From: Octopus vulgaris
Lineage: Eukaryota
Length of the DNA stretch: 64,000 nucleotides
Direction: 5' to 3'
NCBI GenBank assembly: GCA_951406725.2
Contig: OX597821.1
Coordinates: 77,686,001 to 77,750,000, forward strand
Positions 54,917 through 61,833 of the stretch are shown piece by piece. Within the stretch, counting starts at the first letter, position 1. The number at the start of each line of letters is the position of its first letter. Below the pieces are notes generated by a model that had not been told where the DNA came from, searched no databases, and was given only the letters and a program-made list of their open reading frames with translations. The translations under genes were made by a program, and so were the position numbers.

Positions 54917-55299
54917 GCATACACACACACACACACGTGTGTATGTGGAGTATTTATTTATGCATATTGTTGCTATTATGTTAAAGTGTTGTATGTCCAA
55001 ATTTGGCCAAATGTGTTTACTTCAATATTTATTTTTGCTTGCAATAGCTGGTTCTTTTGGTCAAACTATTGTATCTCCAGCAGCTTCAGATGCCAAGATA
55101 ACAAAAATTGTCAAAGTGTAGTACAACAGTTTTGCTATGGAATGGTGAAACTGTTTTTTTTTTTTTGTTTTTTGAAAAGACAATGTTTTGAACTTACGAG
55201 ATCATTTGCATAATAGCAACGATTTACAATCGTAGAATATTAGTTATCTTCCTTCTAAATGTGAGATTAAATTTTTTGTCTTTGATTTTTCAGGAGAGG

Positions 55300-55699
55300 A
55301 TGGGTGTGAGGAAGGTCATTTTCCCATGTGACCTTCCTCACTGGAACATTGTAAGCCAGCAGCTATTACAGCTTCAGTTCTATTGCCAAAGTTCTGGTGC
55401 TACACCTCAAGGGTTAGCCCAGCTCCACCAGCAGATTTTCCTGCAGATCAGAAGCAAAGGTCCACCGACCCCATTCACCTACCATGAAGGCACCAGCAGT
55501 AGTCAACCCAAGGAGCTGTCTACAGCTGAAAGTCAACCATGTGTTTATCAAGGCCTTGTGATTTTCCTGGAACAAGTTGCTAGCATCGATGAAAAGGACT
55601 GCTTCCTGCACTTCATCTTCCCTGCCGTTATCGATATGGCCTGTAATATCAAGGAATTAATTCCGCAGGAAGGTATACCTCTCTGTCGGAAGCAGTGCA
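55300..55699 (+). CDS. PARG: PARG-like (poly(ADP-ribose) glycohydrolase family) coding exon 1
   Basis: Acceptor tttttcag|55294, ATG 55300, donor ca|gtaagt (phase 1). VIFPCDLPHW..GLVIFLE..EKDCFLHFIFPAVIDMA..IPLC resembles the PARG helical accessory domain. Probably a paralogue; upstream coding exon not excluded. Confidence 0.85.
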
Positions 55700-55856
55700 G
55701 TAAGTTGCTATTCACTTATCTTTAACGAGGTGTTTCTTTCTTTTTTTTTTTTGTTTTAGGAAACATTGGGCCCAGACGTGATTGTGTCGTTAAGAGGTTT
55801 GCTTCCCAACCATTTAATTCTGAGTTTAGTCCTGTGGACAAGTGCTTTCTACTATA

Positions 55857-56230
55857 TATTTCTTTACTACCCACAAGGGGATAAAGTCGATTACATCGAC
55901 CCCAGTGCAAAACTGGTACTTTATTTATCGACCCGAAAGGATGAAAGGCAAAGTCAACCTTGGTGGAATTTGAACTCAGAACGTAAAACAGACGAAATAC
56001 CTATTTCTTTACTACCCACAAGGTGCTAAACACTGAGGGGACAAACAAGGACAGACAAACGGATTATGTCGATTATATCGACCTGAGTGCGTAACTAATT
56101 TATTTATCGACCTCGAAAGGATGAAAGGCAAAGTTGACCTCGGCGGAATTTGAACTCAGAACATAACGGCAGACGAAATACCGCTAAGCATTTCGCCTGG
56201 CGTGCTAACAATTCTGCCAGATTACCGCCT
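55857..56230 (-). mobile_element. Tandem dimer of SINE family B
   Basis: Same gacgaaatac|ctatttct junction as 32710-33474. Confidence 0.85.
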
Positions 56231-56959
56231 AATTAACAACCAACAACAACAACAATAGTAATTAATTAATTAAGAAACACAAAAAGCCTTGTGAAATCAG
56301 CTAGCCAGGGTTTCCTGGCTGGAATGTTGAATTGTTTTTTTGCTACTGTTCAAACTGGCAAAGTCAACAAAGCAGTTTAATAACTGTTTGGTGTAATCAA
56401 AGTTTGAATAAGCACACGGCTTGAAAAAAGACAGAAACCAATCAAAGGGAGATAATTAAGTGTGCAGGAAATGCTGACATTCTTTTACAAGTGTTGAAAG
56501 TTCCAGAAACCAACATTGGAATTGGTTACCTTTAATTCTTGTGGTTTGTCTTTAATTCTTGCTAAGATGTACTTTGCAGAATGTGGACATGATGAAAACA
56601 TCTCAGTGTTTGGTATTCATATAGTCCCTGGAGGTTCTTAGGTTCTTTAAAAGATTGTTTTTGAAGCAAGCATATGGAACGTCTTTAACACAAGGTCTTG
56701 TAAAGGATCTTCCATTTGATGTAGCTGATGGTCAGATCTTTAAGTCTCTAGATTAATACTGAAAGGGTTGATGTATGTCCCCTTGGGTTGCCTAAAGCTA
56801 GAAAGATGGATGTTGTGTTTAATTTGTGTGTGTGTTTGTGCCTTCTTGCATTGACATGACATTGCATGATAGTTGTAAATGAGTGCCACTGTCATACAAG
56901 CGGTGTCCTTCATTTTCAATCTGCTATGGAAAACCTGTTTGGCTATGGGGAAATATTAC

Positions 56960-57383
56960 CATAGGAACCAGCGTCGCCTTACTGGCACTCGAGCCATGTG
57001 CTACTAGGGTATTAAGAGCACCATCCGAGCATGATCGTTGCCAGAGTGGCTATTTGGCCTCCGTGCCAGTGGCACGTAAAAGAAACCATTCGAGCGTGAT
57101 CATTACCAGCATCGCCTTACAGGCACCTGTGCCGGTGGCATGTGTAAAAGATTCGAGCAAGGTCGTTGCCAGTACCACCTGACTGGCCCCCGTGCAGGTG
57201 GGACGTAAAAGCACCCACTACACTCTCGGAGTGGTTGGCGTTAGGAAGGGCATCCAGCTGTAGAAACTCTGCCAGATCAAGATTGAAGCTTGGTGCAGTC
57301 ATCTGGTTCGCCAGCCCTCAGTCATTCGTCCAACCCATGCTAGCATGGAAAGCGGACTTTAAATGACGATGATGATGATGATG
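56960..57383 (+). mobile_element. RTE-LINE 3' end (family C)
   Basis: Match to family C. Confidence 0.8.
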
Positions 57384-57797
57384 AAACAGGTGAGTGTCAG
57401 TGACAAGAAGAGTGTCCAACCGTAGAAAAATCTGCCTCCACAGATTCTGTCTGACCCAAGCAAACCTGGAAAAGTGGACGTTAAATGACAACGATGATGA
57501 TTGATAATGTAGTTTTAGATACTCTGTGTCTGAATAGAAGTTGGCATGATTGTAGCTGAAACATCTTTAATCATAAGTCTGCTTGAATTAAGGTTGACCT
57601 GCAGTTAAAAGCAACAACTCATGTTTATTGATGCATTGAAGCACACATAAAACCGATTAGGTTCATGCAAACACACACACACACACACACACATGCAGAC
57701 ACACACACACATGCAGACGCACACACACACACATTTGTACCTCTCCATTTGTACCTCTCAGAGAAGTAATTATTGATTATCTTTTATATTTCCGCAG

Positions 57798-57939
57798 CCA
57801 AAAGCATTGCAGTCAGCCGTAACTTAATGTCAGCCATCATTTCATGTGCATTTCTGTGCCTGTTTCCAGAGAGGAAGAAAGAGAAAACATCGCGGCTAAA
57901 TAATATTAATTTCTCTAATTTCTTTCGCTACCTTCCTCT
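57798..57939 (+). CDS. PARG: PARG-like coding exon 2
   Basis: tttccgcag| .. |gtaagt, phase 1 to 2; TKSIAVSRNLMSAIISCAFLCLFP..INFSNFF matches PARG S.T.S...IASLLANAF.C.FP...INF..LF. Confidence 0.9.
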
Positions 57940-58386
57940 GTAAGTAGCTAGAATTACCATATATTTTCTTCTTCTTCTTTAGTGTTCCTTCATATACACT
58001 CATCCATTCATTGGAGAAAACACAGCAGCCACATATGAACATAGATATATATGTAAATGTAGGCGCAGGCATGGCTGTGTGGTATGAAGCTTCATTCCCA
58101 ACCACATGGTTCCAGGTTCAGTCCCACTGTTGGCCCCTTGGGTAAGTGTCTTCTACTATAGCCTGGAGCCGGTCAAAGCTTTGTTAGTGGATTTGGTAGA
58201 ATATCAGCAATATTGAGGAATATGTTGTCATGAAACGCGTGTAGTAAAGTATATAATTTGGAATAAGAATTGAAGGTATTAATTTTGATTATTTTAATAC
58301 TTAGTCCTATATGTATCTATTGTGGATAATGTCATTCAATGATGATTGGAATTGCTTGAGGGTGATTCTGTCTCTTAAACCTATCT

Positions 58387-58430
<44 letters not shown>

Positions 58431-60289: not shown

Positions 60290-60333
60290 ACACAACGTTT
60301 CGTCTGATATACCCACCAGCCTTCATCAGGTGC
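60290..60333 (-). ncRNA. Minimal type I hammerhead ribozyme motif (intact core)
   Basis: gcac-CTGATGA-a-ggctg..cagac-GAAA-cg-TT-gtgt; one stem II mismatch. Confidence 0.7.
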
Positions 60334-60580
60334 CTTAGGGAAGTTTCGAACCTGAGTCCTCATTCCTTGGGTATTTTTCGATTTTATTATTATTATTCAG
60401 GTCACTGCCTGGAATTGAACTTGGAATCTTGGGGTTAGTAGCATGCGCTCTTAACCATTACGCCATATGCCCACAGGTATATGGCATAGTGACCTGAATA
60501 ATAATGATATGGCAGTAACCTGAATAATAATATCGAAAAATACCTAAGGAATGAGAACTCAGGTTTGAAATTTCCCCGAG

Positions 60581-60624
60581 ACACCTGATGAAGGCTGGAG
60601 AGTATATCAGCCGAAATGTTGTCT
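60581..60624 (+). ncRNA. Minimal type I hammerhead ribozyme motif (stems III and I mutated)
   Basis: acac-CTGATGA-a-ggctg-gagagtatat-cagcc-GAAA-tg-TT-gtct. Confidence 0.6.
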
Positions 60625-60946
60625 TAACAACAAACAAGATGAGGACAAATATCCGTCAAATGTAAATAATGTAGTAAAAGCCATTATTGTCATTTTATGT
60701 CTCCATGCTTGACTGCCCTCTTGAATAGGGTAGAGGACCAGGCGTTGCTCATGCATTTCATTTAGGGTTTGGTTTCTATGACCGGATGCCCTTCTCAATA
60801 GGAACCTTTTTTTACAGAGAACACTGTGTGCATTTTATTGTAACACCAGCATTACAATGGAGGCCTATGACCTAGTAGTTTGGGTGTTGCATTCATGATC
60901 ACAAGATAATGGTTTCAACTCTTGAGCCAGACGGTATGTTGTATTA

Positions 60947-61178
60947 AGGCGTCGAGCTGGCAGAATCGTTAGCCCGCCAGGCGAAATGCATAGCTGTATT
61001 TCGTCTGCCATTATGTTGTGAGTTCAAATTCTGCTGATGTTGACTTTGCCTTTCATCCTTTTTGGGTCGATTAAATAAGTACCAGTTACACACTGGGGTA
61101 GATATAATTGACTTAATCTGTTTGTCTGTCCTTGTTTGTCCCGTCTGTGTTTAGCTCCTTGTGAGTAGTAAAGAAATA
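60947..61178 (+). mobile_element. SINE family B with 13-bp TSD, inserted in an older tRNA-SINE
   Basis: TSD ggtatgttgtatt / ggtatgatgtatt. Confidence 0.85.
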
Positions 61179-61295
61179 GGTATGATGTATTCTTGAGATA
61201 AAACTCTTCATTTTATGTGACTGCAGTTTACTCAGCTCTCAACGAATGACCCTATGATGGATTGGCGTCCTGTTCAGGAAGATTATTGTATTCTT

Positions 61296-61527
61296 ATTTC
61301 TTTATTGCCCACAAGGGGCTAAACATACAGGGGGACAGACAAGGACAGACAAAAGGATTAAGTTGATTATATCGACCCCAGTGCGTAACTGGTACTTAAT
61401 TTATCAACCCTCGAGAGGATGAAAGGCAAAGTCGACCTCGGCGAAATTTTAGGTCAGAATGTAAAGACAGATGAAATACCGCTAAGCATTTCGCCCGGTG
61501 TGCTTACGTTTCTGCCAGCTCGCCACC
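61296..61527 (-). mobile_element. SINE family B with 10-bp TSD
   Basis: TSD ttgtattctt on both sides. Confidence 0.88.
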
Positions 61528-61776
61528 TTGTATTCTTGGTAAACTCTTATGCCATGGAATCTGGTCAATGAACTCTATGAGTCCCAGGGCTCAAGACATT
61601 ACTTAGCTGCCAGCTTCAGAGAGATGGTCATGACTGGAACAAGACTAAAGGTTCTCTTTTTTTTTGTTGAGAGGTGAAAATATTTAATTTAATTTGGTAG
61701 AAGTTTTAATTGTAATGTCTAGTAATTTTATCTCTTAATTAACGTATGCATTTATTTTATTAATCTCAAATTTCAG

Positions 61777-61833
61777 ATTGGATTTGCTAACAGATTTCTT
61801 GGAGGTCACATTTTAAGTAAAGGTAGATGCCAG
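61777..61833 (+). CDS. PARG: PARG-like coding exon 5 (catalytic-loop exon); gene apparently continues past the window
   Basis: atttcag| .. cag|gtagga, phase 0-0; IGFANRFLGGHILSKGRCQ aligns to PARG VDFANRFVGGGVTSAGLVQ. Confidence 0.92.

Follow-up and report, generated by a model that had tools for sequence, protein, structure and literature searches.

A PARG-type gene with ten exons

The window, a stretch of 64,000 nucleotides of the forward strand of Octopus vulgaris contig OX597821.1 (positions 77,686,001 to 77,750,000), contains the first half of a PARG-type gene (Table 1). The whole gene has 10 exons and 1398 codons. As proposed in the initial annotation, the five exons in the window contribute 400, 142, 100, 120 and 57 nt and splice in phase. 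They have AG/GT ends throughout and when joined give 819 nt, or 273 codons without a stop, the other two frames containing 10 and 19 stops. Exon 6 starts 946 nt beyond the window end in phase 0 with the residues Glu-Glu, the pair that had been expected in the next exon. Since these directly follow Gln754, the octopus Q-E-E is intact. Approximately 450 nt of transcript lie upstream of coding exon 1, in exons not placed on the genome.

Table 1. Features of the gene (window positions unless marked as contig positions; residues numbered as in human PARG)
Feature	Position	Strand	Content
Coding exon 1	55294-55699	+	ATG 55300, 400 coding nt, aa 1-133; N-terminal helices and start of PARG helical domain
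Exon 2	57798-57939	+	142 nt; PARG helical domain (PF20811, E 1.1e-7)
Exon 3	58884-58983	+	100 nt; end of helical domain (PF20811, E 3.2e-5)
Exon 4	59691-59810	+	120 nt; start of macro domain N-half; Tyr codon 59784-59786 at human E727
Exon 5	61777-61833	+	57 nt; signature loop; Gly for D737 (61780-61782), His for G746 (61807-61809), Q754 (61831-61833)
Intron 5	61834-64000, continues beyond window	+	five further coding exons downstream
Exon 6	contig 77750946-77751113	+	intact E755/E756, Y795
Exon 7	contig 77752490-77752844	+	macro N-half ends at about aa 376; insert starts
Exon 8	contig 77753702-77756016	+	2315 nt; seven AKAP-like helices, RRxS-type sites, conserved core at about aa 530-620
AKAP-like helices of exon 8	aa 462, 603, 737, 786, 889, 1092, 1130		
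Exon 9	contig 77759917-77760060	+	macro C-half; deletion over N869, F875>P, F902>K
Exon 10	contig from 77761909	+	C-terminal PARG helices, acidic tail; TGA after codon 1398

Evidence for transcription comes from spliced joints in assembled contigs. Introns 1-4 were joined, with GT..AG ends, in contigs of all four runs, from four studies (the RNA nature of the runs being guessed or unrecorded), and on this evidence the locus is transcribed. In three of the four runs exons 1-4 and 7-10 were on one contig, and in the contig of run X2 exactly 227 nt separate exon 4 from exon 7, as expected for the intervening exons. The many changes in the active site could be taken as the mark of a decaying duplicate, or the gene might be an annotation artefact in which two genes have been fused. 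Both seem exceedingly improbable given the 1398 open codons and the spliced single contigs. The protein also has only one difference in its first 273 residues from Octopus bimaculoides LOC106877645 (P0001) and is 97% identical to it, orthologues are conserved with the same architecture, and 11 of the 16 coding differences among the runs in exons 7-10 are synonymous. The spliced contigs and the orthologous proteins rule out both a pseudogene and a fused gene model. An isoform lacking the insert was also considered and rejected, because skipping exon 8, at 2315 nt, would shift the frame.

A split PARG domain with an altered active site

Matches to both PF20811 (E 1.4e-22) and PF05028 (E 1.3e-44) show that the helical and macro domains are present, in line with the PARG-family membership first suggested, and a predicted model can be superposed on human PARG. 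The macro domain comes in two pieces. Positions 2-156 of PF05028 end near aa 379 and the remainder resumes near aa 1220, the two parts being separated by an insert of approximately 850 residues. The AlphaFold2 model of the Argonauta orthologue superposes on human PARG 604-960 over 345 residues (Z 35.6, rmsd 2.4 Å) using both ends of the chain. The two halves are predicted to come together as a single PARG domain at the base of a long disordered loop, giving the whole fold of canonical PARG (human; PDB 4B1H, 7KFP) with its helical and macro domains. The octopus genome also contains an intact canonical PARG on C5, the last exon of which was not found in the 48 kb downstream. The two genes share one intron position, though the C5 protein has only about a dozen residues at the site of the insert and, unlike canonical PARG, the split chain starts near the catalytic domain.

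To number the residues, the sequence was aligned to the human PARG chain and counted back from Q754/E755/E756. The alignment bears out the three substitutions noted at the outset, E727 to Tyr, D737 to Gly and G746 to His. These are common to the orthologues, being found in all three cephalopod proteins, while the 14 other members of alignment A2 all keep E727, D737 and G746. GGH replaces GGG in the GGG-X6-8-QEE signature, with the QEE kept. The diphosphate-binding G873-A-F-G loop is lost in octopus through a three-residue deletion over N869 and the change of F875 to Pro. In the adenine pocket Tyr replaces E727 and Lys replaces F902. D737, E727, G873-A-F-G, N869 and F902 are all changed in the three cephalopod proteins, which thus differ from canonical PARG at E727, D737, G746, N869, F875 and F902 but retain its Q-E-E and Y795. 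The tyrosine clasp is kept, with Y795 present and Phe at Y792.

Mutation of D737 to asparagine is reported to abolish the activity of bovine PARG, and mutation of E727 to asparagine is reported to leave less than 20% activity (PMC3519477). G873-A-F-G, N869 and F902 hold the substrate (PMC3519477). From the sequence it would seem likely that the octopus PARG domain has lost its enzymatic activity and is a catalytically dead structural clasp. Alongside these changes the N-half of the domain has stayed better conserved than the insert, at 93-94% identity to Argonauta and 75% to P0003, compared with 85% and 63%. The initial annotation had left open a pseudoenzyme, a PAR reader or an enzyme with another substrate. 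A pseudoenzyme appears the likeliest of the three. The case for a PAR reader is weakened, as the residues that hold ADP-ribose (E727, N869, the G873-A-F-G loop and F902) have been lost as well. PAR hydrolysis in octopus would presumably be supplied by the canonical C5 PARG.

Not all of the pattern is what would be expected of a dead enzyme. E755/E756, N740 and Y795 are kept in cephalopods, although a dead enzyme would not need them. Together with Q754 they are present in all three cephalopod proteins, the substituted positions have not drifted but are fixed, and the N-half of the domain is, as noted, strongly conserved between Octopus and Argonauta. The protein could, then, be a PKA scaffold with a PARG domain that remains an active hydrolase but acts on something else, such as a mono-ADP-ribosylated target or a different nucleotide. 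We think this unlikely, since the changes take in D737, both glycine-rich loops and the adenine pocket, D737N alone abolishes the activity of the bovine enzyme, and a structural role could explain why the EE helix is retained. A non-catalytic reader of PAR or ADP-ribose that brings anchored PKA to ADP-ribosylated sites, an idea proposed for the human AKAP domains (PMC11377751), would be consistent with the complete predicted fold and with the inhibitor binding that bovine D737N is reported to retain (PMC3519477). It nevertheless appears improbable, as it is residues for binding rather than cutting that are lost (E727, N869, F875, F902 and the G873-A-F-G backbone) and a histidine takes the place of G746 in the loop lining the cleft.

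Helices in the insert resembling PKA anchors

The insert contains seven amphipathic motifs, against 0.17 in shuffled sequences, none of 500 shuffles reaching seven; the pattern, like that used for pFFAT below, was written after the sequences had been seen and any amphipathic helix can match it. There are 5-13 such motifs in each of 18 non-insect relatives, and their density is 8.3 per 1000 residues, compared with 1.0 in 13 unsplit PARGs. Four of the seven octopus motifs open with FA or YA, the start pair reported to mark type I AKAPs (PMC12083921), in helices of 14-18 residues. A strict match was found in none of three beetle inserts. Taken singly none of the seven octopus helices matches an AKAP Pfam family, and a Pfam scan of exon 8 alone gave no family. 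The SmAKAP family matches P0003 (E 1.6e-5, below the cut-off) and, also below the cut-off, P0008, P0009 and SPHKAP. Among single stretches, the RI-binding helix of smAKAP (PDB 5HVZ) best fits a profile built from the seven octopus helices, though at 12.8 bits and E 0.9 this is not significant. smAKAP itself is small and has a single helix, and the likeness is one of motif only. Among the nearest named clusters of the ESM-Atlas are AKAP4 (0.84) and AKAP11-like (0.83), which we treat only as leads.

In a predicted complex of P0001 residues 588-625 with the PKA-R docking dimer of the octopus genome the score was 0.44, against 0.02 for the best control. The runs agreed in at least 78% of contacts, with a partner pLDDT of 61-62, and a complex of this kind has been solved. 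We grade this as weak support: 51 of 78 solved pairs and 2 of 108 mismatched ones passed the mark, but among scores of 0.60 or below were only 5 of the 78 solved pairs together with all four mismatches that passed. The insert is predicted to offer docking sites for several PKA regulatory-subunit dimers, and the helices beginning F/Y-A to bind the RI docking domain. RRxS-type (PKA-type) sites also occur in the insert, with a cluster beside the best-conserved helix that PKA may phosphorylate.

The split family and the vertebrate AKAPs

The same split architecture is found in molluscs, ribbon worms, brachiopods, echinoderms, amphioxus and arthropods, and the active site is intact except in cephalopods, arthropods and a flatworm. 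Twelve invertebrate members carry a pFFAT-like motif 27-47 residues after the N-half; in all four vertebrate AKAPs it follows the matching helix by 32-34 residues. In all it occurs in 20 of 39 rows (16 of 35 invertebrate, four of four vertebrate), compared with 0.04 expected. It was absent from both cephalopod rows tested, so that the octopus copy differs in this from AKAP11 and SPHKAP. In SPHKAP the pFFAT motif is a tested VAP-binding site (PMC12696101). PKA and VAP binding have been tested for vertebrate AKAPs only and are predictions for the invertebrate split PARGs. A literature search, with most subscription papers outside its scope, found no description of a split invertebrate PARG family.

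AKAP11 (AKAP220), SPHKAP (SKIP), AKAP3 and AKAP4 have a domain related to the C-terminal half of PARG at the chain end (PMC11377751), which the profiles and fold comparison here confirm. A further likeness is the presence of several F/Y-A amphipathic helices within a long disordered region. Searching 1.84 billion proteins with a profile built from two cephalopod C-halves yielded 65 matches. SPHKAP of fox, cuckoo and sturgeon and AKAP11 of eel were among them (E 1.5e-4 to 6.6e-4); among PDB sequences the profile gave only chance matches. The Pfam family AKAP_110 (PF05716) scores 18.7 bits on the Lingula C-half and 15.3 bits on eel AKAP11. It matched two of 15 whole relatives scanned at E <0.01 and did not match the octopus protein. 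On a vertebrate C-half profile, for which the comparison set was itself gathered with a cephalopod profile, split members score 27-45 bits and the canonical C5 PARG 6 bits over the same columns. PARGs labelled plant-like by eye score 21-35 bits on this profile, and part of the C-half likeness is therefore ancestral.

The N-half and helical domain, described as lost in the AKAPs (PMC11377751), are recognisable and mostly intact in the invertebrate split PARGs. For the SPHKAP/AKAP11 N-termini there is a colinear alignment to the PARG N-half that scores 30.3 (E 5e-4), where the best of 40 shuffles scores 22.2. The alignment is weak, with a probability of 12-30%, E 0.46 against cephalopods alone, and 26.8 against a best shuffle of 25.9 without arthropods. 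The SPHKAP pFFAT motif sits behind this weak remnant, matching the place of the invertebrate motif, and a SITEEF motif is common to amphioxus and SPHKAP. An AlphaFold2 model of sturgeon SPHKAP from 11 vertebrate-type rows had a mean pLDDT of 32. Its C-terminal domain matches PARG at ranks 1 and 2 of 48,161 (Z 7.2 and 6.4; rmsd 2.8 and 3.4 over 83 and 90 residues). The N-terminus was modelled too poorly (pLDDT 24-38) for a fold assignment, although its predicted order of strands and helices fits the PARG N-half.

Three free trees place the AKAPs inside the split-PARG clade (SH-aLRT 96-99), the sole canonical animal PARG in them being the C5 copy without its last exon and the AKAPs joining the long arthropod branch. 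In AU tests a grouping of the AKAPs with the canonical C5 PARG was not rejected, either with the AKAPs as C-halves only (p 0.7, the constrained tree being 7.7 lnL higher) or with their N-halves added (p 0.2). Together with the weak N-half match and the C-half features shared by plant-like PARGs, these tests would allow the likeness to AKAP11 and SPHKAP to be convergent or to derive from an independent PARG copy, the insert then being a disordered region whose helices bind something other than PKA. We consider this quite unlikely, as the parts come in the same order in both groups (N-half remnant, pFFAT 27-47 residues on, F/Y-A helices, terminal C-half) and PARG_cat and AKAP_110 are reported together for one lamprey gene (PMC11788884, table 3).

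The explanation that we favour, and hold to be probable, is that the gene is a transcribed second PARG paralogue with a PKA-docking insert and a dead PARG clasp, belonging to a family that is the likely forerunner of AKAP11, SPHKAP, AKAP3 and AKAP4. It is likely that an ancient PARG paralogue became a PKA scaffold and gave rise to this group, and the trees lean this way. The ancestral protein would have combined PAR hydrolysis with PKA anchoring and with tethering to the ER (VAP); catalysis would then have been lost separately in cephalopods, arthropods and vertebrates and the scaffold kept. We give about an even chance to a more specific form, a bilaterian hybrid with a pFFAT motif and PKA-RI helices in one PARG loop. 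This would be an active PAR hydrolase, fixed at the ER together with PKA, in bivalves, snails, echinoderms and amphioxus and the single ancestor of the four AKAPs, which would keep a decayed N-half pairing with the C-half, catalysis having been lost at least three times (in cephalopods, in arthropods and in vertebrates).

If true, the active hybrid would tie cAMP signalling directly to ADP-ribose turnover, and the split family would be the missing intermediate between PARG and the vertebrate kinase anchors, among them SPHKAP, the sperm proteins AKAP3 and AKAP4, and AKAP11, a reported risk gene for bipolar disorder and schizophrenia (bioRxiv 10.1101/2024.12.30.630813). It would revise both the published loss of the N-terminal PARG portion in AKAPs (PMC11377751) and the published origin of AKAP220 and SKIP at the base of the vertebrates (PMC12083921). 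It predicts genetically tractable invertebrate orthologues, a folded N-plus-C clasp in AKAP11 and SPHKAP, and a putative PAR hydrolase co-anchored with PKA in bivalves, echinoderms and amphioxus.

The lamprey gene, 'PARG_homolog' (g7740 / GeneID 116945024), is listed with the two Pfam domains on one transcript, as a cyclostome-specific domain shuffle (PMC11788884). The same pair also occurs in a brachiopod and in a protein that groups with sea urchin, with AKAP_110 falling on the PARG C-half.

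Structure, transcription and fold of the gene

The initial annotation placed five exons of a PARG-family gene in the window (G000:C8:77686001-77750000, in a 2.8-Gb genome), and all five are found at those positions with GT/AG borders at every intron. Joined, they give the predicted 273 stop-free codons from the ATG at 55300, and exons 2, 3 and 5 each match PARG Pfam families when scanned singly. The EE pair, which had been expected in an unseen next exon, was found 946 nt beyond the end of the window; as this exon opens with two glutamates, the Q-E-E motif is intact. With the five exons past the window added the frame comes to 1398 codons, and the protein is 97% identical to that of Octopus bimaculoides (1360/1399 columns). 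The gene is transcribed: contigs of all four runs (four studies) have the four window introns spliced out, as well as the three that separate exons 7 to 10 from one another; the RNA status of these runs is a tool's guess or unrecorded, and the evidence for transcription is the spliced joints. Exons 1-4 and 7-10 lie on a contig of equal length and depth in three of the four runs, and in run X2 the two sets are 227 nt apart, as expected.

Coordinates of the features in and near the locus and of the canonical octopus PARG (window positions unless a contig or locus is named)
Feature	Position	Strand	Remarks
Coding exon 1	55294-55699		
Coding exon 2	57798-57939		
Coding exon 3	58884-58983		
Coding exon 4	59691-59810		
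Coding exon 5	61777-61833		
Untranslated leader	upstream of 55291		~450-470 nt in spliced contigs; exon positions not located
Intronic repeats	55700-61776		short, highly abundant repeats, presumably SINE-like, in several copies, and microsatellites; summed contig depths up to ~150,000
Insert block, residues ~530-620	L002 (octopus gene locus) ~3945-4220		Ser/Arg-rich block, then acidic-aromatic motif, then FA helix
Canonical PARG (loci L021-L028)	G000:C5:42367614-42382639	-	all catalytic and binding residues; eight exons join stop-free
LINE-type retrotransposon	1014-5036	+	open 949-codon endonuclease/reverse-transcriptase frame, RVT_1 E 1e-35

The macro domain of the protein is split, ending at about residue 376 and picking up again at about residue 1220, whereas the canonical PARG on contig C5 has about a dozen residues at this place and retains E727, D737, GGG, QEE, the GAFG loop and F902 (human numbering for the active-site residues). 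The last exon of the canonical gene was not found in the 48 kb downstream. Residues 129-1323 of the Argonauta orthologue were modelled with AlphaFold2 from a 26-row alignment; the two ends are predicted confidently, the insert mostly at pLDDT below 50. The model aligns with human PARG 604-960 over 345 residues (Z 35.6, 2.4 A) and, since this alignment takes in both ends, the halves are predicted to rejoin; it was made without templates from an alignment that included PARG relatives, and speaks for compatibility with the fold rather than for activity. By fold, the octopus protein is a member of the PARG family.

An alignment search brought in 25 proteins. Of the 26 proteins then compared, 21 carry 351-2159 inserted residues at the same place, four fungal PARGs have only 38-39 residues there, and one beetle protein could not be measured. 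The family is bilaterian, its named members coming from gastropods, bivalves, ribbon worms, a brachiopod, echinoderms, amphioxus, beetles, a millipede, Daphnia, a damselfly, a tick cluster, Limulus and Macrostomum.

An altered active site in the cephalopod proteins

Alignment to the human PARG chain bears out the substitutions E727>Y, D737>G and G746>H, and these are common to the three cephalopod proteins, one of which (P0003) is counted as such because it groups with two named cephalopod proteins. All three residues are retained in the 14 other members of that alignment, one of which has G745>R. In the cephalopod proteins, moreover, three residues are deleted over N869, the substitutions F875>P and F902>K occur, and the AIDA-strand Asp is replaced by Asn. 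In the published work the substrate is held by N869, the G873-A-F-G loop and F902, the equivalent of D737N kills activity and E727N leaves less than 20% (PMC3519477). Judged on these residues, the octopus protein does not show the active-site features that define a functional PARG. Among cephalopods the N-half is more conserved than the insert (93-94% against 85% identity to Argonauta; 75% against 63% to P0003). It would seem likely that the octopus PARG domain is under selection but catalytically dead, its pocket being altered in all three cephalopods; what speaks most against this is that the EE pair is kept.

In arthropod-type members D737 and E756 are gone in all six aligned rows. This pattern differs from the cephalopod one, so the losses in the two groups look independent.

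AKAP-like helices and PKA-type sites in the insert

The octopus insert contains seven AKAP-type amphipathic motifs against 0.17 in shuffles, by a pattern devised after the sequences had been inspected. The same pattern occurs 5-13 times in all 18 non-insect relatives and in none of the three beetles (P0026, which has no boundaries, was excluded), and the motif density is 8.3 per 1000 residues in the octopus insert against 1.0 in 13 unsplit PARGs. A looser AKAP consensus gave four matches against 0.82 in shuffles (reached in 5/500). Of the seven helices, four start with the pair FA or YA that marks type I anchors (PMC12083921). RRxS-type sites number five against 0.39 expected; most of them, with one FA helix, lie within residues ~530-620, the best-conserved stretch among cephalopods (99% and 89%).

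This FA helix was predicted in complex with the docking dimer of a PKA regulatory subunit of the same genome (L029), which we take from its cysteines to be of RI type. The score was 0.44 against 0.02 for the best control and at least 78% of contacts agree between runs, though support is weak, with the partner at pLDDT 61-62. Among solved pairs 51 of 78 attain the score mark, against 2 of 108 mismatched pairs; at 0.60 or lower it is attained by only 5 of the 78 solved pairs and by all 4 passing mismatches. As a like complex has already been solved, the pass may be a memorised one. Binding of PKA by the octopus protein is a prediction that we regard as likely.

The genome holds four PKA-R-type docking domains (L029-L032, on C6, C5, C20 and C22), presumably one of RI-like, two of RII-like and one of ropporin/SP17 type. 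The block at residues ~530-620 is kept across molluscs, ribbon worms and the brachiopod, with a weaker form in insects, and by eye the acidic-aromatic motif in it looks like the EFFDSF segment in eel AKAP11.

Probable relationship to vertebrate AKAPs

In two relatives Pfam AKAP_110 matches the C-half. AKAP3/4/11 clusters came up in both ESM-Atlas searches, with scores below 0.9, and are leads only; a C-half profile from two cephalopods gave 65 matches, among them eel AKAP11 and the SPHKAP proteins of fox, cuckoo and sturgeon. A match of the PARG C-half to the C-terminal ends of AKAP3, AKAP4, SPHKAP and AKAP11 is already published, the N-terminal portion being stated as lost (PMC11377751). Also in print is a lamprey gene that has PARG_cat together with AKAP_110 and is given as a domain shuffle of cyclostomes (PMC11788884, table 3 and supplement). 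In the open literature we found no description of the split invertebrate family, of an N-half remnant or of the matching position of a pFFAT-like motif.

Along 94-141 columns (E 5e-4 to 2e-3) the N-termini of SPHKAP and AKAP11 run colinear with the PARG N-half; the alignments score 30.3 and 26.8, where the best shuffles score 22.2 and 25.9, and this is weak alone. In an AlphaFold2 model of sturgeon SPHKAP (mean pLDDT 32) the N-terminus came out at pLDDT 24-38, in an order of predicted strands and helices that fits the PARG N-half. The position of the pFFAT-like motif is the stronger sign: it lies 32-34 residues past the last N-half helix in 4/4 vertebrate rows, 27-47 residues past it in 12 invertebrate rows and 123-135 in 4 insect-type rows. 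The motif is present in 20 of 39 rows (2 without the anchor) against 0.04 expected, by a pattern devised after inspection of the sequences; the octopus copy lacks it. In SPHKAP it is a tested VAP-binding site (PMC12696101).

In three free trees (46, 25 and 25 rows picked from ~90 distinct proteins) the vertebrate AKAPs are nested in the split-PARG clade and separate from the C5 PARG, the fungi and the plant-like PARGs. When the AKAPs were constrained to group with the C5 PARG, p-AU was 0.7 and the likelihood 7.7 higher with C-halves alone, and p-AU was 0.2 with N-halves added, in tests limited by one truncated canonical animal PARG and by long branches. A vertebrate C-half profile scored 27-45 bits with split members, 21-35 with plant-like PARGs (a label assigned by eye), 10-12 with fungi and 6 with the C5 PARG. 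As the tree tests are not decisive, the case for a common descent of split PARGs and vertebrate AKAPs, which we consider likely, is built chiefly on the order of parts that they share. Seven unsplit members also fall within the split-PARG clade (P0036, P0039, P0040, P0041, P0043, P0048 and P0068) and may represent the state before insertion, loss of the insert or incomplete gene models.

The two PARG halves are predicted to close into one domain from which the disordered loop would present several RI-docking helices. The octopus protein would be a multivalent scaffold for PKA, clasped by a dead PARG domain, and would work like AKAP11 and SPHKAP. Relatives with intact sites may hydrolyse PAR and anchor PKA at the ER in one protein, and vertebrate AKAP11, SPHKAP and AKAP3/4 would be further-decayed descendants. 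We regard this reading as a whole as fairly likely, less so than its parts; the judgements on the dead enzyme, PKA binding and common descent are not independent of one another.

Elsewhere in the window, the LINE-type reverse-transcriptase frame is preceded by a 348-codon Gln-rich frame.
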